Below, piece by piece: positions 1-42,130 of a DNA stretch of 64,000 nucleotides. Location of the stretch: positions 64,998-128,997 of the forward strand of contig JAUYOL010000043.1 in NCBI GenBank assembly GCA_030695905.1. Direction: 5' to 3'. Positions within the stretch are counted from its first letter, which is position 1. Every line of letters starts with the position of its first letter. This DNA is from Candidatus Omnitrophota bacterium (lineage in GTDB: Bacteria > Omnitrophota > Gorgyraeia > 2-01-FULL-45-10). The notes beneath the pieces are model-generated. The model ran no database searches. It saw nothing but the letters and a program-made list of their open reading frames with translations, and was not told the DNA's origin. Made by a program: the position numbers and the translations under genes.

Positions 1-140
1 GTTTTTTTGGATATATGTTTCTGCATGGTCTCGATATTAAAGGTATTCTCTCCAAAATAGCTGGAAACTTTTTTTAGGACTGCTTGTTTTTTCAAATCCA
101 CGCTCTTTACTTTAAATAATGCTTCCTGTCGAATTGCCAT
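1..140 (-). CDS. glutamine synthetase type III (GlnN-like), N-terminal 46 codons, continues beyond window start
   Basis: Minus-strand ATG at 138-140 preceded by an AGGGAG RBS. Translation MAIRQEALFKVKSVDLKKQAVLKKVSSYFGENTFNIETMQKHISKK follows the N-terminal pattern of Bacteroides-type GSIII (S-DYY--VF---M--YLPK), recalled from memory. Confidence 0.5.
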   Translation of the reverse strand, partial: MAIRQEALFKVKSVDLKKQAVLKKVSSYFGENTFNIETMQKHISKK

Positions 141-179
141 AAAACTCCCTTTCTATGTTTTTATTGCGGGTGTCCAAAT

Positions 180-207
180 ATTATAGCACAGGCCCATCCC
201 AATTCAA
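180..207 (-). promoter_or_regulatory. sigma70-like promoter TTGAAT-N16-TGcTATAAT, about 40 nt upstream of the glnN ATG
   Basis: Minus strand reads ttgaattgggatgggcctgtgctataat, i.e. an extended -10 TGnTATAAT with a perfect hexamer. Confidence 0.45.
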
Positions 208-223
208 TCGTTTTTACTTTTAC

Positions 224-269
224 AAAAAAATAACGCCCATCTTGGCAGCTGCTATTTCCAAAATGAACG
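224..269 (-). terminator. terminator-like hairpin plus U-run, either the glnK1 3' terminator or a glnN leader attenuator
   Basis: Minus strand: CGTTCATTTTGG-(12 nt loop)-CCAAGATGGGCG forms a 12-bp stem with 3 G-U pairs, followed by TTATTTTTTTG. Confidence 0.4.
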
Positions 270-293
270 CCTGTGTTCCACTTTAATATTGTA

Positions 294-307
294 GCACTAC
301 TTTGTGC
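294..307 (-). promoter_or_regulatory. conserved hairpin P1: GCAC-AAAGTA-GTGC, 13 nt downstream of motif copy A
   Basis: 4-bp stem with a hexaloop carrying A at position 1 and G at position 4. The same architecture follows motif copies B and C. Confidence 0.45.
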
Positions 308-320
308 GGCATTACTATAC

Positions 321-351
321 ATACAAGTAAAAACGGAGGCGTTTTGGTAAC
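321..351 (-). promoter_or_regulatory. conserved 31-nt motif copy A (minus strand GTTACCAAAA-N8-TTTTTACTTGTAT), upstream of glnN
   Basis: Plus strand ATACAAGTAAAAA-CGGAGGCG-TTTTGGTAAC. The 13- and 10-nt flanks are identical in all three copies and only the central 8 nt vary. Confidence 0.6.
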
Positions 352-692
352 TACCCTATAGCTTCCTGTCCCCTCTCGCCCGTTCTTATCCTTATGCACT
401 CTTCGAGGTTCAGCACAAATATCTTTCCGTCGCCTATATTGCCCGTCTTAGCGGCCTTACTGATTGCGGCTATAGTGGGTTCCACAAATTTCTCATTTAC
501 TGCGATCTCAAGCCTTACTTTTTTTAGCAGATTTCCAGTTTCTTTTCTGCCACGGTATATTTGAGTTATTCCTTTTTGCCTTCCGCATCCCAGGACGTTG
601 GAAACAGTTTTAAGATGTATTTCGCACTTGTCCAGCTCCTGCAGGACATCTTCAAGTTTATGCGGCTGAATAACAGCGACTACTAACTTCAT
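351..692 (-). CDS. glnK: nitrogen regulatory protein P-II (GlnK, copy 1)
   Basis: 113 aa starting [10 protein letters not shown] with the T-loop RGRKE; lies downstream of amtB. Confidence 0.9.
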
Positions 693-703
693 ATTGTCCC
701 CCT

Positions 704-1939
704 TTAGTCGAGCAGTGTATACGCGCTCTCCTCATGCTGTGTTATATCAAGGCCTATTACCTCTTCCTCATCCTCGACTCTTAGACCCATAACAGCATCA
801 AGAACCTTTAGCAGAACAAACGTAATGGCTATAGAATAAACCATTACTGCCAGAACACCAGTTGATTGTATCATAAATTGATTTTGATTTCCAAAAAATA
901 AGCCATTGTTACCAGCCGGGTTAATTATTTTTTGCGCAAGCAATCCTGTTGCCAATGCTCCAACAGCTCCTCCGACACCATGCACGCCGAAAGCGTCGAG
1001 AGAGTCGTCATATGAAAATTTCAGTTTTATAATAGCTACGGCAGTGTAACACAATAATGCCGCCGCGATGCCTATCAATATGGCAGACATGGGAGAGACA
1101 AATCCCGACGCGGGTGTTATAGTGGCCAGGCCCGCGACAGCGCCTGTGGCGCCGCCCAGAAGGGTCGGCTTGCCGGTTGCTCTCCACTCTATAAACATCC
1201 ACGTAAGCGCTGCTGATGAAGCGGCTGCATTAGTAGCTACAAACGCCCATACCGCTAATCCATTTGCCGCGAGAGAGCTTCCTGCGTTAAAGCCGAACCA
1301 ACCGAACCAGAGCAACCCCGCTCCAATGATAGTTAGCGGCAGATTATGCGGAGGCATAGGTTCCCGTCCATAACCCCGCCTCTTACCTAATATAAGAGCA
1401 CACACTAAAGCTGATACTCCGCTTGATACGTGTACTACTATCCCACCGGCAAAATCCAATACTCCCTTATTCCTTAGCCAACCGCCCTCGCCCCATACCC
1501 AATGACATACGGGATCGTATACAAGAGTGGCCCATAACAAGGTAAAGACAACATAAGTTGAAAATTTCATTCTTTCGGCGAATGCTCCGGCTATCAGGCC
1601 GGGCGTTATGACTGCGAACATCATCTGGTACGCCATGAAAAGAAGGTGTGGTATCGTTGATGAGTAAGTAGGGTTGGGCTCTATTCCAACGCCTTTTAAA
1701 CCCATCCATGCCAGGTTTCCTATAAAATGGCCCTGGTCGGGGCCAAAACTTAAACTGTATCCGCATAACATCCATTGAATACTGATAAGGCACAATACGA
1801 AAAAAGATTGCATCATCGTCGCCAAGACATTTTTTCTTCTTACCAACCCGCCGTAAAATAGTGCCAGTCCGGGTATCGTCATAAGCATAACCAGCGCCGT
1901 AGACATCAAAATCCACGCCGTATCGCCAGAATTTATCAT
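704..1939 (-). CDS. amtB: ammonium transporter Amt (copy 1)
   Basis: 411 aa with multiple TM helices and the Amt signature [10 protein letters not shown] ... DFAGG.VVH.SSG. Confidence 0.9.
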
Positions 1940-1985
1940 AATTTATCCTCTCTTGTATTCAACTGCGTAATCAATTGAGCAAATT

Positions 1986-2035
1986 TAAATAAAAAAATAG
2001 CGCGCACCTTGTTGAGCACAACATTGTGCACGCTA
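1986..2035 (-). terminator. amtB1 leader terminator/attenuator: TAGCGTGCAC ... GTGCGCGCTA plus TTTTTTTATTTAAATTT
   Basis: 10-bp stem with 1 mismatch followed by a U-run, about 45 nt before the RBS and ATG. Its 5' arm overlaps hairpin P1 (2016-2029), so the two structures are mutually exclusive. Confidence 0.5.
2016..2029 (-). promoter_or_regulatory. conserved hairpin P1: GCAC-AATGTT-GTGC, 11 nt downstream of motif copy B
   Basis: Hexaloop with A at position 1 and G at position 4. As DNA it is also a GCAC-N6-GTGC palindrome. Confidence 0.45.
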
Positions 2036-2040
2036 TTGCT

Positions 2041-2071
2041 ATACAAGTAAAAAAGATAGATTTTTGGTAAC
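2041..2071 (-). promoter_or_regulatory. conserved 31-nt motif copy B, upstream of amtB1-glnK1
   Basis: Plus strand ATACAAGTAAAAA-AGATAGAT-TTTTGGTAAC. Confidence 0.6.
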
Positions 2072-2158
2072 CAATTTCGCTTTGCGAAATTGGCCCTGAG
2101 CGAGCCATGAAATCCGACTTTATAGGAGGATTTCAGGCGAGCCGAAGGACCTTTCCAC

Positions 2159-2512
2159 TCATCCTATCGCTACGCCATCTCTTTCACCCGTCCTTATTCT
2201 CACGCACTCCGCAAGATCCAATACGAATATCTTCCCATCACCTATATTGCCTGTTTTTGCGCCCTTTGTTATGGCCAATACCGTAGCTTCAACATATTTT
2301 TCATTTACAGCGATCTCGAGCCTTACCTTTTTCAGAAGGTTGCCCGTCTCCTTTTTGCCTCTATATACTTCGGTTTTACCTTTTTGCCTTCCGCACCCCA
2401 GGACATTGCTTACGGTCTTTAGGTGTACCTCCGCCCTATCCAGTTCCTGCAGGACATCTTCAAGTTTATGTGGTTGAATAATCGCGATTATAAGCTTCAT
2501 ATAAAACGTCAC
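2159..2512 (-). CDS. glnK: nitrogen regulatory protein P-II (GlnK, copy 2)
   Basis: 117 aa, about 80% identical to copy 1. Confidence 0.9.
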
Positions 2513-2518
2513 CTCCTC

Positions 2519-3754
2519 TTAGTCTAACAGCGTATATGCACTCTCTTCATGCTGTGTTATATCAAGGCCTATTACCTCTTCCTCATCCTCGACTCTTAGA
2601 CCCATAACAGCATCAAGGACCTTTAATAATATAAAGGTCACGGCCACCGAATATGCCATCGTGGCTAAAACACCGATTGCCTGGGTAGCGAATTGCGCTG
2701 AATTTCCAAAAAACAACCCATTATTTCCAGCGGCATTTACTATCTTTTGCGCAAATAAACCTGTTGCAAGCGCTCCCAACGTTCCTCCTACACCATGAAC
2801 ACCAAAAGCATCGAGTGAGTCATCGTAGCCGAATTTTAATTTGATAACAGCTACAGCTGTATAGCAAACAAGTCCTACCAGAATCCCTATAAGGATCGAC
2901 GACAGAGGTGTTACGAATCCCGCTGCGGGAGTAATTGCAACAAGTCCCGCTACGGCGCCGGTTGCTCCGCCAAGTATTGTTGGTTTTCCGGTAACTTTCC
3001 ACTCTATGATCATCCATGTCAACGCGGCTGCAGCTGCGGCGGTATTTGTGGCGATAAAAGCCGAGACCGCGAGCTCGTTTGCACCTAAAGCGCTGCCGGC
3101 GTTAAATCCAAACCAGCCAAACCACAAAAGGGCCGCGCCGATCAGACATAAAGGAAGATTGTGCGGCGGCATAGGTTCTTGGCCGTAGCCCCTCCTCTTA
3201 CCCATATATAGGGCGCACACGAGCGCCGATATACCGCTTGATACGTGAACTACCGTGCCCCCCGCGAAATCCAAAGCGCCCATATTTCTTAACCATCCGC
3301 CCGCTCCCCACACCCAGTGGCAGACAGGATCATAAACAAGCGTCGCCCATAATAGGGTAAAGACAACGTAGGTTGAAAACTTCATTCTCTCCGCAAAGGC
3401 GCCTGTTATTAGGCCCGGCGTAATTACCGCGAACATCATCTGATAAATCATGAAAAGAAGATGCGGGATAGTTGAGGCATAATCCGGATTGGGGGCCATT
3501 CCTACACCCTTTAAACCCATCCATGCCAGGCTTCCTATAAAATGGCCCTGATCGGGACCAAAGGACAGACTGTACCCAAAAAGCACCCATTGAATACTGA
3601 TAAGGCACAGTACGAAAAAAGACTGCATTATTGTGGCGAGGACGTTTTTACGCCTTACCAGTCCTCCATAAAACAGCGCAAGGCCCGGGAATGTCATTAA
3701 CATGACAAGCGCAGTCGATATTAAGACCCATGCTGTATCGCCTGAATTAATCAT
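2519..3754 (-). CDS. amtB: ammonium transporter Amt (copy 2)
   Basis: 411 aa, about 85% identical to copy 1. GGAGG RBS upstream of the ATG. Confidence 0.9.
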   Translation of the reverse strand: MINSGDTAWVLISTALVMLMTFPGLALFYGGLVRRKNVLATIMQSFFVLCLISIQWVLFGYSLSFGPDQGHFIGSLAWMGLKGVGMAPNPDYASTIPHLLFMIYQMMFAVITPGLITGAFAERMKFSTYVVFTLLWATLVYDPVCHWVWGAGGWLRNMGALDFAGGTVVHVSSGISALVCALYMGKRRGYGQEPMPPHNLPLCLIGAALLWFGWFGFNAGSALGANELAVSAFIATNTAAAAAALTWMIIEWKVTGKPTILGGATGAVAGLVAITPAAGFVTPLSSILIGILVGLVCYTAVAVIKLKFGYDDSLDAFGVHGVGGTLGALATGLFAQKIVNAAGNNGLFFGNSAQFATQAIGVLATMAYSVAVTFILLKVLDAVMGLRVEDEEEVIGLDITQHEESAYTLLD

Positions 3755-3769
3755 AGCTACCTCCTCTTT

Positions 3770-3949
3770 TTATTTTATATCCAGTTTTTCTTTGACCATT
3801 TCTGCGTATACTTTATTTATGCGGCCAGTTTTTAGCCATCTCTCTAATGTCGACACCTGTATATTTATCTTCACAGAAAGATCATGCAGCGTATAGTCAT
3901 TTTCTTCTTTAATTTGCTGTATTTTTTTAATTAATTCTTTATCAATCAT
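3770..3949 (-). CDS. small 59-aa HTH-like protein, not in the ORF track
   Basis: Translates to MIDKELIKKIQQIKEENDYTLHDLSVKINIQVSTLERWLKTGRINKVYAEMVKEKLDIK. The segment TLHDLSVKINIQVSTLERW looks like a helix-turn-helix. Its stop lies 16 nt before the amtB2 start. Confidence 0.4.
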   Translation of the reverse strand: MIDKELIKKIQQIKEENDYTLHDLSVKINIQVSTLERWLKTGRINKVYAEMVKEKLDIK

Positions 3950-3969
3950 TAATGCAGCTTCCTATATTT

Positions 3970-5226
3970 CTAAAAAGTGATGAGCGCGTCCATGCTGAAT
4001 GTCAGCTGATCCCTCTTGCCGGTGCTAAATACTGATCTGTCAGAGTGGTCATAACGAATTTCCGGCCGAAACAACAAGTTGGATAGTACCTTGTCTTTTG
4101 GGAACGGCTTTATTGCTACGCCTGCGGTTACCTCATAGTAGTTGGCGCCGACAGGAGCGGCGTTAGAAAAACCGCTGGCTGCATCTTTATACCACTCCAG
4201 TCGGGTATTCAGAGTAAAATACTGATTAAGCGCATAGCTAGCATATCCGGCCACACCCCCCCACTGCTTGACCTTATCTTGCGATCCGGGGATCTTTGGA
4301 GTCACAACGTAGTCAGTGCCCAGGCCGAGGCTTAATTTATCATTGATCTTATGTGTTATAACTAAATCCATGGCTGTCCACCAGTTGGCGCTGTCACCCG
4401 TAGGAAGATTGTGTCCGACACCGATCGGGAATTCAGGGCCTTCCGTCATCGTAAAGATGGCGGTAGTCTTGTCGCTGGGTGTAAAGGTTACACGGCCCAA
4501 TAGATCCAAAGCATGGTTGGCATCTCGCAGCGACTGGTTCCATCCCAGCGTTGTGCCAAGGTCAAACGTCCATTGCGGGTTCATTATATAGGTGGCCAGA
4601 ACGCCCGTCTGCGTACCCGGCTCAGCATAGAGAAACTGGTAACTATAAGAATAGAATGCCTTGGCAGGATCACCGAAAGCCCCGTAAATATTGGCGCTGA
4701 ATTGTTCAAATCCGGCCAACTCGATCCACTTACCTACTCTAAGCCGTACAGGTATATAAGGAAGAGCCATATCCGCGTAAGCTTGGAGAAGGTCCCATTG
4801 ATTATGACCCGTTTGGGTATCCCACATGCCATTAGAGTGTATGAAGGCAGCGTCCGCGCCAAAGATGCCCTCCATGCGCCCGCCTATGTCAAACTGCTTC
4901 TTGGTCGGATCTACCGTGCGTTCGACGTTCAAGCTGACCTTATTAAGGGTTATGTCGCTTTTGAAGTTGTTATATCCGATGAAGGTCGGCCCTACGCCTT
5001 CCTGAGGCGCTGTAGCGTCATAAAACCAGCCCGCCTGGGTGTATCCATAGATCTTAATGCCGAGCTTATCTAAAGGTTTGGCTAAACCCACCTTGTCCAT
5101 GCCGGTCATAAGCAGCCCTCTCGACGGCGCAGTTAGAACATCCTCATCGGCATATACCCAGGAATGCGCTTGCGAGTACACAAGGAATGATACCAATATT
5201 AAAGTAATTTTTTTAATCAGTTCCAT
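3970..5226 (-). CDS. outer-membrane beta-barrel (porin-like) protein
   Basis: 418 aa with a signal peptide, alternating amphipathic strands and a C-terminal ...ALITF with terminal Phe. It is the first gene of the transcription unit leading into amtB2-glnK2. Confidence 0.55.
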   Translation of the reverse strand: MELIKKITLILVSFLVYSQAHSWVYADEDVLTAPSRGLLMTGMDKVGLAKPLDKLGIKIYGYTQAGWFYDATAPQEGVGPTFIGYNNFKSDITLNKVSLNVERTVDPTKKQFDIGGRMEGIFGADAAFIHSNGMWDTQTGHNQWDLLQAYADMALPYIPVRLRVGKWIELAGFEQFSANIYGAFGDPAKAFYSYSYQFLYAEPGTQTGVLATYIMNPQWTFDLGTTLGWNQSLRDANHALDLLGRVTFTPSDKTTAIFTMTEGPEFPIGVGHNLPTGDSANWWTAMDLVITHKINDKLSLGLGTDYVVTPKIPGSQDKVKQWGGVAGYASYALNQYFTLNTRLEWYKDAASGFSNAAPVGANYYEVTAGVAIKPFPKDKVLSNLLFRPEIRYDHSDRSVFSTGKRDQLTFSMDALITF

Positions 5227-5249
5227 ATTATCTCCTTTTTATGTACCTC

Positions 5250-5295
5250 AAATAAAAAAAGCGTCTTATTTATCCACATGGATCAATAAGACGCC
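5250..5295 (-). terminator. porin leader terminator-like hairpin T2: GGCGTCTTATT-(14 nt)-AATAAGACGC plus TTTTTTTATTT
   Basis: 10-bp perfect stem followed by a U-run, ending about 20 nt before the AAAGGAG RBS. Confidence 0.55.
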
Positions 5296-5304
5296 AATGT
5301 CCTA

Positions 5305-5337
5305 AAATTTAAATAAAAAAGCGCTCTTTTCGAACGC
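5305..5337 (-). terminator. porin leader terminator-like hairpin T1: GCGTTC-GAAAA-GAGCGC plus TTTTTTATTTAAATTTT
   Basis: The 3' flank GCGCTTTTTTATTTAAATTT is nearly identical to the amtB1 leader flank GCGCTATTTTTTTATTTAAATTT. Confidence 0.45.
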
Positions 5338-5349
5338 CTTAGTTTATCA

Positions 5350-5363
5350 ACACAACTATGTGT
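5350..5363 (-). promoter_or_regulatory. conserved hairpin P1: ACAC-ATAGTT-GTGT, 13 nt downstream of motif copy C
   Basis: Same stem-hexaloop architecture, with A at loop position 1 and G at position 4. Confidence 0.45.
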
Positions 5364-5376
5364 CTTAATGCTACTC

Positions 5377-5407
5377 ATACAAGTAAAAAGAGCTTAGTTT
5401 TGGTAAC
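5377..5407 (-). promoter_or_regulatory. conserved 31-nt motif copy C, upstream of the porin-HTH-amtB2-glnK2 unit
   Basis: Plus strand ATACAAGTAAAAA-GAGCTTAG-TTTTGGTAAC. It overlaps the last 4 codons and stop of the sigma factor gene. Confidence 0.6.
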
Positions 5408-5933
5408 TCCTTTTTATCTCGCATCTCAGTTTCTCGCATTTTGCCCTGATCTTTTTCCTTAATTTTATCACGGCGACGTGTGAAATGCCAAGCTTTTCAC
5501 CCATTTCACGCACTGTCAGGCCGTCGGTGCTCATTTTTATAATAGCGATTTCCCTGTCATTAAGGTCATTTTTATAGGCTTCATCATATAATATTTTGTC
5601 CTCAACCTGTTCTTCACAGGACGATTCGTTTAAAGCTAATACTTCTTCGAGCATAGTTCCGTCTTCATCTATGGGGCTTTCGATGCTCTGGATCTTTACT
5701 TTATCCATGGATGTCCTTATGTAATTCTTAAGATGAAAGTAGCAGCCCTGCAATATATAGCTGTCCGTTTTATCATCAAGGATGCCCTTGCCAGACTTGA
5801 TCCATAGATGGATAACCGCCTCCTGGTATAGGTCATCATCGTTAAAGAACGTAAAATGACCGTTGAGCCGATGACTTATCCTTCGGATCGTAGGCGTAAG
5901 TCTGGTTATTAATGTTTCGAAATTATCTTTCAT
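5394..5933 (-). CDS. ECF-type (sigma-24-like) RNA polymerase sigma factor
   Basis: 179 aa. A region-2-like segment DDLYQEAVIHLW...YFHLKNYIRT and a region-4 HTH LTVREMGEKLGISHVAVIKLRKKIRAK. Confidence 0.55.
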   Translation of the reverse strand: MKDNFETLITRLTPTIRRISHRLNGHFTFFNDDDLYQEAVIHLWIKSGKGILDDKTDSYILQGCYFHLKNYIRTSMDKVKIQSIESPIDEDGTMLEEVLALNESSCEEQVEDKILYDEAYKNDLNDREIAIIKMSTDGLTVREMGEKLGISHVAVIKLRKKIRAKCEKLRCEIKRSYQN

Positions 5934-5942
5934 GTTAATAAA

Positions 5943-5981
5943 GAAGCCCTTCGATGCATATCAATGCATACAAAGGGCTTC
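5943..5981 (-). terminator. rho-independent terminator downstream of nadE
   Basis: Minus strand GAAGCCCTT-(21 nt, internally palindromic ATGCAT..ATGCAT)-AAGGGCTTC followed by TTTATT. Confidence 0.55.
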
Positions 5982-6025
5982 TTTGCTCCTTAATATTTTT
6001 ATCTCTTCAGCGAGATAAATTCCTT

Positions 6026-7705
6026 TTAATATTCTTTATACTTGTTCGTTATCGGCATTCTTCTATCTTTGCCGAATGACCTTGGCGTTATTCTTATGCC
6101 CGGCGGTGACTGCCTCCTCTTGTATTCGCTCTTATCGACCATAGCAACAACTCTCAAGACATCGTCTTTACTGCATCCCGAGGATATGATCTTCTTCATA
6201 TCGCGGTCATCTTCAACATACGCTTTGAGTATAGGATCTAATTTGCTGTAAACCGGCAATGTATCGCTGTCTTTCTGATCGGGCTTGAGCTCCGCGGTGG
6301 GCTCTTTTGTTAAGACAGAATCCGGTATTATATGAGAAATAGAATTTCTATATTTGCAAAGCTTATAGACAAGGGTTTTTGGCACATCTTTTATTACCGC
6401 GAAGCCTCCTGCCATGTCTCCATACAGAGTGGCATAGCCGGTGCTCATTTCCGATTTATTTCCCGTAGTAAGGACGAGCCACCCAAATTTATTGGACAGG
6501 GCCATCAATATATTGCCTCTTATGCGCGCCTGCAGATTTTCCTCCGCTATGTTCTTTTCTGATCCAGCGAATAGCGATGATAAAGTAATAAGGTATAATT
6601 TAAATATCTGTTCTATGGAAATAGCCTCATATCTTATGCCTAAGTTACCAGCGACCTCTCTCGCGTCGTTTGCTGATTCTTGTGAAGAATATCGAGACGG
6701 CATGAATATGCCCGTTACGTTATCCTTGCCAAGGGCATCTACTGCCAACGCCGCTACTATGGCGGAGTCTACGCCACCGCTTAATCCAATGGCAACTTTT
6801 TTAAAACCATTCTTGTTTACATAATCCTTTAGTCCCAGCAGGAGCGCTTTATATGCCTCTTCCGCATTTTCTACCATGACAGCAACTTTATTTTTTAATA
6901 CAGAAGGTTTCTTATCTATCTTTTTCTTTATGGTCAATATTTTACTATCAGTTCTTCTGTGCGCAGCGTTTAAAGCAATATCCGCGAAAAGCAGCTCTTC
7001 TTCAAAAGCCTTGGCTCTCGCGATTATCCTGCCCTTATCGTTTGCCACCATACTGCGGCCGTCAAATACAAGTTCATCCTGTCCCCCTACCATATTTACG
7101 TAGGATATAAATATCTTGTTGCTTTTTGCCGCCTTCTGGATAACATTTTCTCTTTCCTTTATCTTTCCGATATGATAAGGAGAAGAGTTTATTGCGATCA
7201 TTACTTGAGCGCCGGCCAAAGCACACATTTTTACGGGCCCGGACTTATGCCATATGTCTTCACATATACTGAGTCCAAATACTATATTATCCATCTTAAA
7301 GATAAAAGGAGATTTACCCTGTTTAAAATAACGGACTTCGTCGAATACCCCATAATTGGGCAATAGCATCTTGTGGTATATACCGAGAATTCTTCCCTTA
7401 TATATTACCGCGGCGGCATTGTAAACATTGGCGCCCTTACTATCCGCGAAGCCGATTATAGCTGCTACATCCCCGACAGACTCGGCTATCTCCTTGAGTA
7501 TGTGCACATTTCGTTCGATAAAATGCGATTTAAAAAGCAGGTCCTCTGGCGGGTATCCGGTTATAGCCAACTCAGGGAAAGAGACTATGTCAGCTCCCGC
7601 ATTTTGAGCCTTATTTATACAGTCCATTATTTTCTCGGCGTTTAGATACAGGTCTCCTACTGTGCAATTAACCTGCGCTAAAGCCAATCGTATTGTTTTC
7701 TTCAT
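6026..7705 (-). CDS. nadE: glutamine-dependent NAD+ synthetase
   Basis: 559 aa. N-terminal CN-hydrolase/nitrilase domain plus a C-terminal NAD synthase domain with the PP-loop GLSGGVDSA. Confidence 0.85.
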   Translation of the reverse strand: MKKTIRLALAQVNCTVGDLYLNAEKIMDCINKAQNAGADIVSFPELAITGYPPEDLLFKSHFIERNVHILKEIAESVGDVAAIIGFADSKGANVYNAAAVIYKGRILGIYHKMLLPNYGVFDEVRYFKQGKSPFIFKMDNIVFGLSICEDIWHKSGPVKMCALAGAQVMIAINSSPYHIGKIKERENVIQKAAKSNKIFISYVNMVGGQDELVFDGRSMVANDKGRIIARAKAFEEELLFADIALNAAHRRTDSKILTIKKKIDKKPSVLKNKVAVMVENAEEAYKALLLGLKDYVNKNGFKKVAIGLSGGVDSAIVAALAVDALGKDNVTGIFMPSRYSSQESANDAREVAGNLGIRYEAISIEQIFKLYLITLSSLFAGSEKNIAEENLQARIRGNILMALSNKFGWLVLTTGNKSEMSTGYATLYGDMAGGFAVIKDVPKTLVYKLCKYRNSISHIIPDSVLTKEPTAELKPDQKDSDTLPVYSKLDPILKAYVEDDRDMKKIISSGCSKDDVLRVVAMVDKSEYKRRQSPPGIRITPRSFGKDRRMPITNKYKEY

Positions 7706-7725
7706 ATTTTAATCTCTTTATCCCC

Positions 7726-7751
7726 ACAAAATAAAAAATGCCTTCCGGCAT
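7726..7751 (-). terminator. nadE leader hairpin ATGCC-GGAA-GGCAT plus TTTTTTATTTTG (attenuator-like)
   Basis: Short 5-bp stem with a U-run, located between the promoter and the RBS. Confidence 0.35.
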
Positions 7752-7789
7752 ACTTTGCCAAAAGACATTCTTTGTCTACTACAATAAGT

Positions 7790-7817
7790 ATTATATCACA
7801 CTTCGGTAGTTTGTCAA
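7790..7817 (-). promoter_or_regulatory. near-consensus sigma70 promoter TTGACA-N16-TGaTATAAT for nadE
   Basis: Minus strand ttgacaaactaccgaagtgtgatataat. Confidence 0.55.
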
Positions 7818-7850
7818 TCAAGTAATTCCTGCTTTTTAATTTCTAACCCG

Positions 7851-8567
7851 TTATTTCTTTTTCATCGAGTCTATCAGGATGATAGCGTCCGCTATATCGC
7901 GCATGGAGCGCCTTGTATCCATACTCTGTCTTTGTATCTTCTTAAACGCTTCCTCTTCGGAAAGGCCCTGCTCTCTCATAAGGATACCCTTGGCCTTTTC
8001 AACGCTCTTCCTGGTTTCTAATTCTTCCTGTATTACCTTAGTCTTTACCATAAGTTCCGCATTTTCAATAACTATCGCAGCCTGGTTTGCCACAGAGAAC
8101 AGTATGTCTATCTCTTCCTTCGTGAACTTGTGCGGTTTTGAAGTATAGTTATTTAATACGCCTATTACCCTGCCCTTAACTGAAAGAGGAACGGATAGTA
8201 GAGATCTTAAGCCTTCCTTCTTTGCTATATCCTTATATTTATATTCCGTCTCTTTGGATATGTCGTATATTGCCTGCGGCTTATTTTCTAAAGCGGCCTT
8301 TCCGGCTATCCCTTCTCCTATATGCAGCGGCGGTTTTTTGTTGTATGTTTCGCTCATAGATTGAGTCGCTTTAAGCACAAGCGTTTTTGTCTTATCATCC
8401 ACCAGGCTTAAAGAGCATATCTTGGAATTCATGATCTCCGCGGTAACCGTTACGATAAGTTTTAGAATATCTTCCAGGTAGAGGTTTGAGGTAATAGTTC
8501 TGCTGACCTTGGAGATTGCCTCTAAGCGTTTCGCGTGAGATACTGCCCTGCTGTCCTTTTTTGCCAT
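7851..8567 (-). CDS. GAF-ANTAR regulatory protein (RNA-binding antiterminator family)
   Basis: 238 aa. N-terminal GAF-like region and a C-terminal ANTAR-like segment EKAKGILMREQGLSEEEAFKKIQRQSMDTRRSMRDIADAII. Confidence 0.6.
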   Translation of the reverse strand: MAKKDSRAVSHAKRLEAISKVSRTITSNLYLEDILKLIVTVTAEIMNSKICSLSLVDDKTKTLVLKATQSMSETYNKKPPLHIGEGIAGKAALENKPQAIYDISKETEYKYKDIAKKEGLRSLLSVPLSVKGRVIGVLNNYTSKPHKFTKEEIDILFSVANQAAIVIENAELMVKTKVIQEELETRKSVEKAKGILMREQGLSEEEAFKKIQRQSMDTRRSMRDIADAIILIDSMKKK

Positions 8568-8571
8568 TTGG

Positions 8572-9534
8572 TTATCTCTTTCCTTCCGATTTAGGGGCTA
8601 TGTTCGTCCCGAGAAATTTCGTGTCAGAGTCTTTGGGCATTTCTTGTATCCAGCCATTATTTAACCCCAACTTGTGCGCTTCGTCAACTTTTATTTTGTA
8701 CTCCTCCTCCAGTATACCGCAAGACAGCTCTTTAAAATCACATGCTTTATAGGTCGGATAGTATTGGCTCATTATACTCAAGTAGGCATCTTTAGAGATG
8801 TTTTCCTTGATAAATTTTAAACTTTCGGTAGTTCCAGAAATATTGTGCGGCAATACCAGAAGCCTTATTATGAGGCCTTTTATCGCAATATCATCGTCGT
8901 CCAAAATAACGTTTCCTGCCTGTCTATACATCTCCTTCACCGCTGTCCTATCGCGTTCAACGTAATCGGGAGCATCGGAATACAGCTTGGCCATCCTGTT
9001 ATCCGAATAGCGCATATCAGGCAAATATATGTCGATAATGCCATCAAGTAGACGTATAGTGTCTGTAAGGTCATAACCGCTTGTATTATATACGATGGGT
9101 ATCGAAAGGCCGTTATTGACGGCTATTTCCAACGCCATCAATATCTGAGGCACATAATGCGTAGGATTGACCAGGTTTATATTATGACAGCCCGCTTGCT
9201 GCAGTTCTAACATTATCGAGGCAAGTTTCTCTATCGATATTTCGTCGCCTCCATCAAGCTGGCTGAATATGTAGTTCTGGCAGTATGCGCATTTCATATT
9301 ACAGCGCGAGAAGAATATCGTTCCGGAGCCTTTAGAGCCGGATAGCGCGGGTTCCTCGCCGTGGTGGGCCATGTAACTGTATATAACGGGATTGTATGGC
9401 GCCCTGCAATAACCGAGTTTGCCCGCGAACCTATTTACTTTGCACCGGCGCGGACATATTGCGCATTTACTTAAAGAGTCTTTCAGCAAGTCAAGCGCAA
9501 TACGCACTTTCTTTAATTTATCATCTTTATTCAT
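8572..9534 (-). CDS. radical SAM enzyme, PFL-activase-like (AmmeMemoRadiSam-type)
   Basis: 320 aa. CNMKCAYCQN is a CxxxCxxC motif, and an N-terminal Cys cluster CAICPRRC...C is also present. Confidence 0.6.
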   Translation of the reverse strand: MNKDDKLKKVRIALDLLKDSLSKCAICPRRCKVNRFAGKLGYCRAPYNPVIYSYMAHHGEEPALSGSKGSGTIFFSRCNMKCAYCQNYIFSQLDGGDEISIEKLASIMLELQQAGCHNINLVNPTHYVPQILMALEIAVNNGLSIPIVYNTSGYDLTDTIRLLDGIIDIYLPDMRYSDNRMAKLYSDAPDYVERDRTAVKEMYRQAGNVILDDDDIAIKGLIIRLLVLPHNISGTTESLKFIKENISKDAYLSIMSQYYPTYKACDFKELSCGILEEEYKIKVDEAHKLGLNNGWIQEMPKDSDTKFLGTNIAPKSEGKR

Positions 9535-29136: not shown

Positions 29137-29374
29137 TTTTTGAAATAATTTTAGGATCGCGTGTATAGCTATATCCTGTAGTGGATGTGGTCCTGTGCGC
29201 CGCTAATATTTTTAGTTTAACCAGGTCTTCAAGAGCTTTTCTAACCTTTGAGCGCTCCTCGCGTACCCATGTGGAAATACCTCGCGGCGTATCTATAGAG
29301 GCCTGGTTTTCATGAAAGAATTTCATTATCTTAAAGTGCAGTTCCGATAAAGCGGTCTTGTCATCGTTTGCCAT
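29102..29374 (-). CDS. small hypothetical protein (possible winged-helix)
   Basis: About 90 aa. Overlaps both neighbours. Confidence 0.3.
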   Translation of the reverse strand: MANDDKTALSELHFKIMKFFHENQASIDTPRGISTWVREERSKVRKALEDLVKLKILAAHRTTSTTGYSYTRDPKIISKIEKLLKKRKSA

Positions 29375-30884
29375 GTTTTTCCCTCGCAAGCATTTCACTT
29401 ATATCTTTTCTCTTTATGACTTCTAAAAACGCCTGTACTACTTTTGGATCAAATTGTTTTCCTGAGCTGTTGCGGATCTCTTCGGCCGCCGCGTTTATGG
29501 ATTTAGGCGTCCTGTAAGGCTTTTTCGTTATCATGGCCTCAAAAGCGCTCACTACCGCCATTATCCTGGCGCCTACAGGGATCTGGTCTTTCTTCAGTCC
29601 TTTGGGATAGCCTGTGCCGTCGTAGTTTTCATGGTGATGGAGTATTATAGGGATTATCGACTTTAATGCCTTTATCGGTTTTAATATTTCTGCGCCTATT
29701 ATCGGATGTTCTTTTACCAGATTATACTGTTTTTCGGTGAGCTTCGCGGGTTTTTTAAGGACTTCTTCGGGCACGATCAGCTGCCCCGCGTCATGCAACA
29801 GTATCGAGTATTCTATGCTCTTGAGCTCATATCCGGAAAGGTGTAATTTTTGTCCGACCAGCGTCGTTATCCTTAAAAATGAAGCCCGCGGCATATACTG
29901 GCCGCTTTTGCGCGTGCTCACTATTGCCGCAAGGGACTTTATCATTCCAAATGTTAATTTCTCCTGCTCCTTATATAGATGCGCGTTCTTTATCGCTATT
30001 ACCGCCTGCTCGGCAAGGGTGGACATTATCTCCTGGTCGAATTGCGTGAAGGGTTTGCCGTCTATCTTGTCATATAGCGTTATAACACCGATGACATCCT
30101 CGTCTATCAAAGGTGTGGCCAGGTGATTTTTGTCGCGTATCGGCCTGCCGAATTTCGCGGCTTTGCCCGGCGACCAGCGGCCTATGCGCACCTTCTTAAG
30201 CTTTGATTTAGTTTCTCTCAAGTCTACAGTGGCCTTCGGCAGCAGCAGTTTTTTGGTGGAATCTACAAGTTTTATGGAACATCTGTTGGCCCTTATTACT
30301 TGCAATGAAAGTCTCGCCACTCGAGGCAGAAGCTCGTTCATATCAAGGGTAGAGCCTATAAGCCTGTGCACCGTGTGGACCGTCGATAACGCTATAGCGC
30401 GCGGACGTATCGTCTCATACAATTTGGATAGCTCAAGTTCTTTCTGCACTTCTTTTACTATAGTATCCGTAAAAGCGGCGAAGATGTCCATTATCTCGTC
30501 GGAGACATCTTTTTTGGTATAACATGCGCCTATGTAGCCGTATAGTTTGTCGCCCTGCGAAATAGGATAGATGAATCCGCGCAGGCCCTCTATGCATTCA
30601 AACCGCACCATCCTTTTCTCCAGGCCGGCCTTTTCCACCATATCTTCCAACATCCTGACGCAGCTGGCGCCTTTTTGGAAATCAGGTTTTTTAAGAAATG
30701 GGCATGTGTTTAAGACGAGTTTCTTTATAGACGCCGCTGAAGGATGCGGCTCCTCTATGAGCCACCACATAGCGCTCTTTAGGCATGAGCCGAAACATTC
30801 TTCTTCTTTTTTCAGGCTTACGCTCTTCTTCAGCTTGTCAAAAAGTTCCTGTTGGTATTCCCTGTCTGTAAATTCCTGCTTCAT
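29361..30884 (-). CDS. GAF domain - HD-GYP phosphodiesterase (c-di-GMP hydrolysis)
   Basis: HD...HHENYDGTGYP signature. Confidence 0.75.
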   Translation of the reverse strand: MKQEFTDREYQQELFDKLKKSVSLKKEEECFGSCLKSAMWWLIEEPHPSAASIKKLVLNTCPFLKKPDFQKGASCVRMLEDMVEKAGLEKRMVRFECIEGLRGFIYPISQGDKLYGYIGACYTKKDVSDEIMDIFAAFTDTIVKEVQKELELSKLYETIRPRAIALSTVHTVHRLIGSTLDMNELLPRVARLSLQVIRANRCSIKLVDSTKKLLLPKATVDLRETKSKLKKVRIGRWSPGKAAKFGRPIRDKNHLATPLIDEDVIGVITLYDKIDGKPFTQFDQEIMSTLAEQAVIAIKNAHLYKEQEKLTFGMIKSLAAIVSTRKSGQYMPRASFLRITTLVGQKLHLSGYELKSIEYSILLHDAGQLIVPEEVLKKPAKLTEKQYNLVKEHPIIGAEILKPIKALKSIIPIILHHHENYDGTGYPKGLKKDQIPVGARIMAVVSAFEAMITKKPYRTPKSINAAAEEIRNSSGKQFDPKVVQAFLEVIKRKDISEMLAREKHGKR

Positions 30885-42033: not shown

Positions 42034-42107
42034 CAAAGCAGAATGGAGCGAGCGATGGGAATCGAACCCACGTATCAAGCTTGGGAAGCTCGTATTCTAC
42101 CATTGAA
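42034..42107 (-). tRNA. tRNA-Gly(CCC)
   Basis: Minus strand GCGAGCG-TA-ATTC-AATGGTA-GAAT-A-CGAGC-TTCCCAA-GCTTG-ATACG-TGGGT-TCGATTC-CCAT-CGCTCGC-T-CCA. Acceptor stem 7 bp, anticodon stem 5 bp, T-loop TTCGATT. Confidence 0.85.
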
Positions 42108-42130
42108 TTACGCTCGCGCCGATCGCTCAT

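Follow-up and report, generated by a model that had tools for sequence, protein, structure and literature searches.

Candidatus Omnitrophota are abundant and uncultured bacteria, and we know of no work on how their genes are regulated. We analyzed a 64,000-nt stretch of one Omnitrophota genome (contig JAUYOL010000043.1, positions 64,998 to 128,997 of the forward strand; hereafter, the window), the start of which carries a cluster of nitrogen-assimilation genes on the minus strand. The cluster comprises the glutamine synthetase gene glnN, two pairs of ammonium transporter and P-II genes (amtB1-glnK1 and amtB2-glnK2), a porin gene, a gene for a small sigma-70-family protein, the NAD synthetase gene nadE, and a gene for a protein with GAF and ANTAR domains (Table 1). 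A 31-base motif stands upstream of glnN, of amtB1-glnK1, and of the operon that begins with the porin gene, and each copy is followed by a leader containing small hairpins. The motif, the leaders, and the two putative regulators encoded beside them are the subject of this analysis.

Scanning the window for GTTACCAAAA-N8-TTTTTACTTGTAT returned exactly three matches, all on the minus strand and with no mismatches, even when three were allowed. None was found in 100 dinucleotide-preserving shuffles, and none is expected by chance. All 23 fixed bases are identical in the three copies (23/23, within 5.4 kb), the three N8 segments are all different (CGCCTCCG, ATCTATCT, and CTAAGCTC), and the remaining 58 kb of the window hold no further copy. 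An initial annotation, made from the letters of the sequence, had reported three copies at these positions with only the central 8 nt variable, lying 100–180 nt 5' of nitrogen genes and each followed by a hairpin. The exact-pattern scan agrees, the distances to the start codons being 181, 102, and 151 nt for copies 1, 2, and 3, and the hairpins read from the sequence start 13, 11, and 13 nt past the motif, respectively. The gene calls of that annotation also held for glnN, amtB1-glnK1, the porin, and amtB2-glnK2, based on Pfam and on another contig of the same organism (L173), where glnN reads as a type III glutamine synthetase of 730 aa. Its helix-turn-helix (HTH) label for a 59-aa open reading frame (ORF) found no support, as this ORF (3770–3949) has no Pfam family match.

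Table 1 Features of the nitrogen-assimilation cluster, with positions counted from the first base of the window.
Feature	Position	Strand	Remarks
Motif copy 1	321-351	-	upstream of glnN; -35 GTTACC at 346-351, -10 TACTTGTA at 322-329
Motif copy 2	2041-2071	-	upstream of amtB1-glnK1
Motif copy 3	5377-5407	-	upstream of porin, 59-aa ORF, amtB2, and glnK2; overlaps the last codons of the sigma gene (..SYQN, stop)
Leader 1 P1	294-307	-	GCAC-AAAGUA-GUGC; A1/G4 hexaloop; homologous helix covaries
Leader 1 P2	265-278	-	GAAC-ACAGGC-GUUC; loop positions 4-6 and 3' arm form the terminator 5' arm
Leader 1 intrinsic terminator (predicted)	224-271	-	GGCGUUCA...UGGGCGUU, then AUUUUUUU
Leader 2 P1	2016-2029	-	GCAC-AAUGUU-GUGC; 5' arm inside the terminator 5' arm
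Leader 2 intrinsic terminator (predicted)	1991-2035	-	UAGCGUGCAC...GUGCGCGCUA, then U7; -25.2 kcal/mol, z = -5.6
Leader 3 P1	5350-5363	-	ACAC-AUAGUU-GUGU
Leader 3 P2-like hairpin	5333-5344	-	AAC-UAAGGC-GUU; overlaps the first terminator
Leader 3 first terminator (predicted)	5308-5340	-	AAGGCGUUC-GAAAA-GAGCGCUUU, then U run
Leader 3 second P2-type hairpin	5290-5301	-	GAC-AUUGGC-GUC; overlaps the second terminator
Leader 3 second terminator (predicted)	5254-5295	-	GGCGUCUUAUU...AAUAAGACGC, then U7; 132-nt fold, z = -5.4
glnN, partial	1-140	-	runs off the window start
glnK1	351-692	-	P-II by Pfam
amtB1	704-1939	-	Ammonium_transp by Pfam
glnK2	2159-2512	-	P-II by Pfam
amtB2	2519-3754	-	Ammonium_transp by Pfam
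59-aa ORF	3770-3949	-	between porin and amtB2
BBP2 porin	3970-5226	-	Pfam
Sigma-70-family, ECF-like sigma gene (179 aa)	5394-5933	-	TIGR02937, predicted structure, motif linkage
nadE (glutamine-dependent NAD synthetase)	6026-7705	-	directly upstream of the sigma gene
nadE leader	7706-7817	-	TTGACA/TGnTATAAT promoter, hairpins, terminator
GAF-ANTAR gene	7851-8567	-	Pfam GAF_2 (3.5e-22) and ANTAR (8.7e-22)

One genome per species was then scanned with the 19-base pattern TTACCAAAA-N8-TTTTTACTTG, which gave 92 loci. About 74 of these are of an Omnitrophota type, in which TA follows and G precedes the pattern; nearly all derive from Candidatus Omnitrophota metagenome-assembled genomes (MAGs), and a few are labeled Elusimicrobia, Firestonebacteria, or Planctomycetia. 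The other matches (Rickettsia, Priestia, and others) have neither the preceding G nor the following TA and look like chance occurrences. In total, the motif is kept in well over 100 Omnitrophota-type loci of many species, where it is almost always co-oriented with and upstream of nitrogen genes. The first genes 3' of it encode AmtB, GlnK, GlnN, GlnA, a small HTH protein of the Fis type with GltB after it, porins, a glutamine amidotransferase, NifH, or GAF-ANTAR proteins. Nitrogen genes recur behind the motif in related MAGs, which the initial annotation had proposed to search. Two sets of sites that are independent of the search pattern, i.e., second sites in the same loci and sites reached only via the sigma gene, keep GTTACC and TTACTTGTA with a variable spacer. 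The blocks that do not vary are GTTACC(A) and (T)TACTTGTA, and in 138 of 140 sites the gap between them is 16 nt; the runs of A and T in the 31-mer (AAAA and TTTT) are preferences only (e.g., GGTTACCAGCGCTTGCATTGCATTACTTGTA), and the 16-nt spacer is A/T-biased without any conserved sequence.

Three perfect copies within 5.4 kb might suggest a mobile repeat of the MITE (miniature inverted-repeat transposable element) kind that lies near nitrogen genes by coincidence, and the initial annotation had raised a repeat scattered at random over the genome as what would speak against its own proposal. We give this idea next to no credence. Only the two blocks are conserved, not the center or the flanks; terminal inverted repeats are absent, as are copies elsewhere in the window; and the copies in relatives sit in one orientation before nitrogen genes at more than 100 loci. 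Because the downstream genes cluster in nitrogen functions, a scattered repeat is ruled out.

The initial annotation had also described the motif as a promoter-like nitrogen element in which the recognition blocks are fixed and the spacer is free, and this is borne out by the relatives, which keep the blocks and vary the spacer. The hexamers it had picked (TTACCA and TTGTAT, about 18 nt apart) have to be replaced by the two invariant blocks and their 16-nt gap. The 31-mer is not of the housekeeping promoter type, given that nadE in the same cluster has a canonical one (TTGACA-16-TGaTATAAT, with TTGACA/TATACT in relatives). In some loci the hairpin cores begin as early as 7–8 nt past TACTTG, which puts the start site just after the block and therefore the -10 element within TACTTGTA, at TACTTG(TA). 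A -10 element at a TAnnnT after the motif was considered and rejected, as the conserved T is too distant by one position and hairpins in some loci start 7–8 nt past TACTTG.

No sigma-54-type site (TGGCAC-N5-TTGC, -24 GG/-12 GC) was detected in the three leaders at up to two mismatches, as the initial annotation had stated, and the whole window has 31 such matches vs 41 expected. By inspection, no NtcA (GTA-N8-TAC), GlnR/TnrA, NrpR, or CRP-type palindrome fits the motif; neither TGTNA-N7-TNACA nor GGAA-N6-TTCC was found in it, and an inverted repeat spanning the whole motif does not fit either. We consider it very likely that the 31-mer is a dedicated promoter of nitrogen-assimilation genes.

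Several MAGs showed further sites. In one Omnitrophota MAG (L044, 3005–3300) nifH has the motif in front of it, together with an ACGC-AUAGUG-GCGU hairpin, so the regulon can include nitrogenase. Motif-plus-hairpin sites were also detected in MAGs assigned to distant taxa, namely L012 (labeled Actinomycetota, Candidatus Geothermocultor), L072 (labeled Methanothrix), and L062 (labeled Clostridia). L012 also has the sigma and GAF-ANTAR genes, and L062 has nadE, glnN, and the Fis-type gene. These sites could reflect binning contamination or horizontal transfer.

The leaders downstream of the motif contain more than the single hairpin first noticed. Strong intrinsic terminators are predicted in all three leaders of the window, and these, together with a second hairpin, had been missed by the initial annotation. 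Targets of ANTAR proteins consist of two small stem-loops with hexaloops that have A at position 1 and G at position 4 (A1/G4), the second of which overlaps a terminator, and in many bacteria they lie before genes for P-II, ammonium transporters, glutamine and glutamate synthases, and nitrogenase (Ramesh 2012, PMC3369931). We aligned 31 homologous glnN, glnA, and gltB leaders from relatives. The first (P1) and second (P2) hairpins were 86.9% paired, with double changes in 7 of 10 pairs, a number that none of 500 shuffles reached, and slid partners were 27–44% paired. The terminator helix that overlaps P2 was 96.7% paired, with many G-U pairs and with 5 of 8 pairs changed on both sides; its 5' arm is formed by P2 loop positions 4–6 and the P2 3' arm. 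G at loop position 4 is invariant in P2 and kept in every aligned P1, and position 1 is A, occasionally G. The consensus hairpins are xCAC-AnnGnn-GUGx for P1 and xAC-AnnGnC-GUx for P2.

The same elements are enriched on one side of the motif. Among 136 motif sites, at least one A1/G4 hexaloop hairpin was found within 160 nt downstream of 130 vs upstream of 37, at least two hairpins downstream of 81 vs upstream of 6, and a T5 run downstream of 119 vs upstream of 40. The initial annotation had left two possibilities for the hairpin, an RNA element whose stem should covary in homologous loci, and a duplex-DNA operator, GCAC-N6-GTGC, similar to NtrC half-sites. Such an operator would serve an NtrC-like or another dimeric regulator, and the arms are indeed inverted copies of each other, with GCAC/GTGC close to an NtrC half-site, but this reading is very improbable in view of the other features. 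The hairpin lies anywhere from about 7 to more than 100 nt past the promoter, the stem often contains G-U pairs (e.g., 18 GC and 8 GU at one pair), and the loop is strand-specific (A1, G4). In addition, a second hairpin and/or a competing terminator always follows, no sigma-54 site is present, and an ANTAR protein is encoded nearby. The RNA alternative is the one supported, by the compensatory changes in the stem, the G-U pairs, the strand-specific loop, and the competing terminator.

Some leaders depart from this arrangement, and these departures weigh against an attenuator at every site. Leader 2 of the window has one canonical hexaloop hairpin only and no canonical P2, the loop of the P2-like hairpin in leader 3 (5333–5344) begins with U in place of A, no hairpins were detectable at some motif sites (e.g., L026 and L055), and P2 occurs alone at L017, L054, and L070. 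In a glnA subclade (L021, L027, L029, and L065), P1 has a 7-nt AAAGUUU loop, and the UAAGGC loop, with U at position 1, recurs in P2 of the nadE leaders in relatives. If such non-canonical loops are functional, the A1 rule would be relaxed in this lineage. An Rfam scan of the whole window at the gathering threshold gave only a tRNA, and a scan of positions 1–8700 by E-value gave nothing. Judging from the sequence comparisons, the leaders are in all likelihood ANTAR-type attenuators, a known kind of RNA switch.

The protein that may act on these leaders is encoded 2.5 kb away from the motif/leader region, and its homologues occur in a conserved cluster in relatives, with the recurring order (radical SAM)-GAF/ANTAR-NadE-sigma-[motif]-porin/AmtB-GlnK-[motif]-GlnN/GlnA. 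The initial annotation had singled out the GAF-ANTAR protein and the adjacent ECF-like sigma as the partners to examine, a choice in line with the conserved cluster and with the linkage of the sigma gene to the motif.

The 179-aa protein encoded next to motif copy 3 matches TIGR02937 over residues 4–168 (53.2 bits vs a cutoff of 42.9), and all 19 of 19 aligned homologues match this model at E ≤ 1. Its predicted structure comprises two helical domains (residues 5–78 and 106–178) joined by a disordered linker. The best fold matches in the Protein Data Bank (PDB) are nearly all sigma-70-family proteins, among them SigH, SigB, and the ECF sigmas sigma-L, sigma-H, SigW, and sigma-E, and many are small and of the ECF type, with modest E-values of at least 2e-4, and a PDB sequence-profile search with the sigma alignment returned only region 4/LuxR-type HTH segments at weak E-values. 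The NCBI name is sigma-70 family sigma factor, from an Omnitrophota MAG, and 878 clusters of the protein database belong to the family. By profile match and structural model, the protein is a sigma-70-family sigma factor, similar to the extracytoplasmic function (ECF) type, with sigma-2 and sigma-4 domains only.

The sigma gene and the motif are closely linked. The stop codon of the gene abuts or overlaps a motif copy, with a recurrent offset of -13, at which the codons for the C-terminal YQN lie in the -35 block; in the window, gene and promoter overlap by 13 nt (5394–5407). The overlap recurs across species, including L001, L015, L037, L045, L053, L081, and many of L093–L172. We picked 80 metagenome loci solely by sigma homology and sought the motif around the stop codon, between -60 and +200 nt. 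Of the 80 loci, 47 had a perfect 14-base core in this interval, and 58 had a core with up to three mismatches, the estimated chance rate being about 3e-6 per locus (260 positions × 3 spacer lengths / 4^14). Given this genomic linkage, we infer that the adjacent sigma probably reads the motif.

Several observations count against this pairing. The motif is absent beside the gene in 22 of the 80 loci, and in 22 of 23 loci the 500 nt preceding the sigma gene contained no core motif; the motif lies downstream and not upstream, so the usual signature of ECF autoregulation is absent. No anti-sigma candidate was seen among the neighbors (NadE upstream; porin, outer membrane protein, or AmtB downstream), with small or distant genes not included in this search. 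The usual ECF promoter consensus has AAC in the -35 and CGT in the -10 element, which GTTACC and TACTTGTA do not match. Furthermore, the clades with variant -10 blocks have no consistent matching change in sigma region 2. These variants, TACTTTAA, TACTTAAT, and CGACTTGTA, stand beside sigma homologues in L131, L132, L133, L136, L149, L160, and L161; in region 2, GCYYYLRNHLRK replaces GCYFHLKNYIRK in L160, L161, and L168, and L132 and L133 keep the consensus.

The loci without an adjacent motif and the missing autoregulatory copy would also be expected if the motif were the promoter of a different alternative sigma, encoded elsewhere, with the adjacent one serving other targets, the tie between the adjacent sigma and the motif being one of genomic linkage. 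We regard this as rather improbable. The conserved cluster shows no other sigma gene; gene and motif stay adjacent, often with the stop codon falling within the -35 block, down to about 33% protein identity; and residues of regions 2 and 4.2 are invariant, matching the two invariant DNA blocks.

A second alternative does without a dedicated sigma. The 31-mer would then be a promoter-operator used by the housekeeping or no dedicated sigma, with a nitrogen-responsive DNA-binding regulator recognizing GTTACC and/or TACTTGTA, and the sigma gene would be a mere neighbor. Candidates are found among the small putative DNA-binding proteins of the regulon. In 26–27 loci of relatives (L005, L025, L039, L048, L054, L076, L089, and others), a gene for a small Fis-type HTH_8 protein (80–126 aa) lies after the motif or glnA and before gltB, and the 59-aa ORF is kept in at least 13 related loci, directly 5' of amtB wherever the gene order was read. 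The HTH_8 protein could act on the regulon as a further DNA-binding regulator. The A/T runs that flank the variable center could bend DNA, and no motif copy lies upstream of the sigma gene. Nevertheless, we find this explanation unlikely. The blocks are asymmetric and have the fixed 16-nt gap of promoter geometry, neither resembles the TTGACA/TATAAT of nadE, and no TAnnnT occurs at the correct distance. The motif is present here even though neither the 64-kb window nor the glnN-gltB-gltD region of the same organism (L173) has the HTH_8 gene, and the adjacency of sigma gene and motif is far above chance.

The sigma gene follows nadE, whose own leader (7706–7817) contains two hairpins that are best read as 3-bp stems with 7-nt A1/G4 loops (GAC-AAAGAAU-GUC and GGC-AAAGUAU-GCC) and a terminator (AUGCC-GGAA-GGCAU, then a U run). 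In relatives, the nadE leaders have a housekeeping promoter, hexaloop hairpins (AGAC-AAGGAU-GUCU and GGAC-UAAGGC-GUCC), and terminators. The nadE leader in the window looks like an ANTAR-type attenuator without the 31-mer. In many lineages nadE and the sigma gene are translationally coupled, and in the clade of the window they are separated by a 90-nt spacer with a further hairpin pair. This spacer (5934–6025, minus strand) has a TCTC-GCUGAA-GAGA hairpin and, immediately 5' of the start codon of the sigma gene, a long one (GAAGCCCUUU...AAAGGGCUUC), with no Shine-Dalgarno sequence evident by eye, and the arrangement is kept in the clade. As the sigma gene follows an apparently attenuated nadE, the antiterminator may gate sigma synthesis too.

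Given these features, a two-layer control can be proposed. In the first layer, RNA polymerase with the 179-aa sigma would read GTTACC(A) as the -35 element, the 16-nt spacer, and (T)TACTTGTA as the -10 element, and transcription would start about 6–8 nt past TACTTG. In the second layer, the transcript would begin with the ANTAR target, the terminator would form by default, and transcription would stop. An active GAF-ANTAR protein, presumably activated under nitrogen limitation sensed via its GAF domain, would bind the hexaloops, hold P1/P2, and block the terminator, and read-through would then reach glnN, amtB-glnK, and the operon of the porin. The competitor of the terminator in leader 2 would be P1 itself, and leader 3 would have two terminators in tandem. 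Through the nadE leader, the antiterminator may also gate the sigma, which would make the cascade a feed-forward one.

On balance, we favor the overall account of a sigma-read promoter, an ANTAR attenuator, and a cascade. A broader generalization is offered only tentatively, i.e., that for central nitrogen assimilation Omnitrophota and some neighboring uncultured lineages use a dedicated ECF-like sigma without an anti-sigma, the gene of which is joined to one of its own target promoters, a near-invariant GTTACC-N16-TACTTGTA promoter, and a GAF-ANTAR protein that gates the sigma, by way of the nadE leader, and all regulon transcripts. This would be a previously undescribed system, a coherent feed-forward AND gate with GAF as the nitrogen sensor that replaces sigma-54/NtrC.

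Other features were detected outside the cluster. The tRNA found by Rfam lies at 42047–42117 on the minus strand (67.7 bits). A second GAF-like region (29976–30389, minus strand), inside a 507-aa ORF (29361–30884), is 31% identical to the GAF portion of the ANTAR protein. Past the window start, the glnN-gltB spacer of the same organism (L173, 2815–2968) has a hairpin like that of a terminator (AGGCGUUC...GAGCGCCU), similar to the P2/terminator sequence except that both the P2 5' arm and the motif are missing; a TTGCAA-17-TATTAT promoter-like site lies just 5' of it.

For the phylum Omnitrophota, the finding provides a concrete, testable regulatory code, and the 14-base promoter core marks the nitrogen regulon in any MAG. 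The candidate cognate sigma is small and apparently has no anti-sigma, and may serve as an orthogonal expression part. The GAF-ANTAR class, which is large, was still uncharacterized in 2012 (PMC3369931), and a regulator of this class with many natural RNA targets is a route into it. The initial annotation had called the whole an undescribed module. For the hairpins this did not hold, as the A1/G4 loop is what defines ANTAR targets (PMC3369931), and the hairpin/terminator module is apparently a new member of a known family. The promoter and the linked sigma appear to be new; we found nothing relevant on an ECF sigma with ANTAR and nitrogen, or on Omnitrophota regulation, in the literature searched, the coverage of which was incomplete.

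Like the sigma-54/NtrC, NtcA, GlnR/TnrA, and NrpR regulons, the system has one dedicated DNA signal common to glnA/glnN, amtB-glnK, and gltB operons, but the sequence and geometry of this signal match none of them, and there is no GG-N10-GC. The sigma resembles ECF (group 4) sigmas, such as sigma-E, SigW, and the Mycobacterium tuberculosis sigma-H and sigma-L, in being a small two-domain protein and in its putative promoter, bipartite and highly specific with a fixed spacer of about 16 nt, and small dedicated regulon. It differs in that this regulon is central nitrogen assimilation and not envelope or stress functions, and in that no adjacent anti-sigma and no promoter copy upstream of the sigma gene were seen. 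Nitrogen, NAD synthase, ammonium, ANTAR, and Omnitrophica all go unmentioned in the main text of a paper that re-classified the ECF sigmas (PMC7826278).

The leaders share with the known cases of ANTAR antitermination (EutV-eut, NasR-nasF, and AmiR-ami; PMC3369931) the two A1/G4 hexaloop stem-loops, the overlap of the second with a terminator, the nitrogen gene classes downstream, and the ANTAR protein encoded nearby. They differ in the regulator, which has a GAF sensor and is not of the REC, NIT, or AmiC-partnered type, in the leaders with a single hairpin, a U1/G1 loop, a 7-nt loop, or tandem terminators, and in the host, which belongs to an uncultured phylum; no Rfam family matches the leaders.

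A close parallel in logic is in Geobacter sulfurreducens, where a GnfL/GnfM and GnfK/GnfR cascade acts on nitrogen genes (Ueki & Lovley 2010, PMC2995071). There, as proposed here, a master system at initiation is combined with an ANTAR regulator that relieves leader terminators of a subset of the same genes, and the expression of one layer depends on the other. The Geobacter master is a two-component His-Asp phosphorelay and its ANTAR protein a response regulator (PMC2995071), whereas here the initiation layer is apparently an ECF-like sigma with its own promoter and no sigma-54 site, and the ANTAR protein bears a GAF domain. The Omnitrophota system may thus be a second, independent case, after Geobacter, of nitrogen genes gated both at initiation and by ANTAR antitermination.

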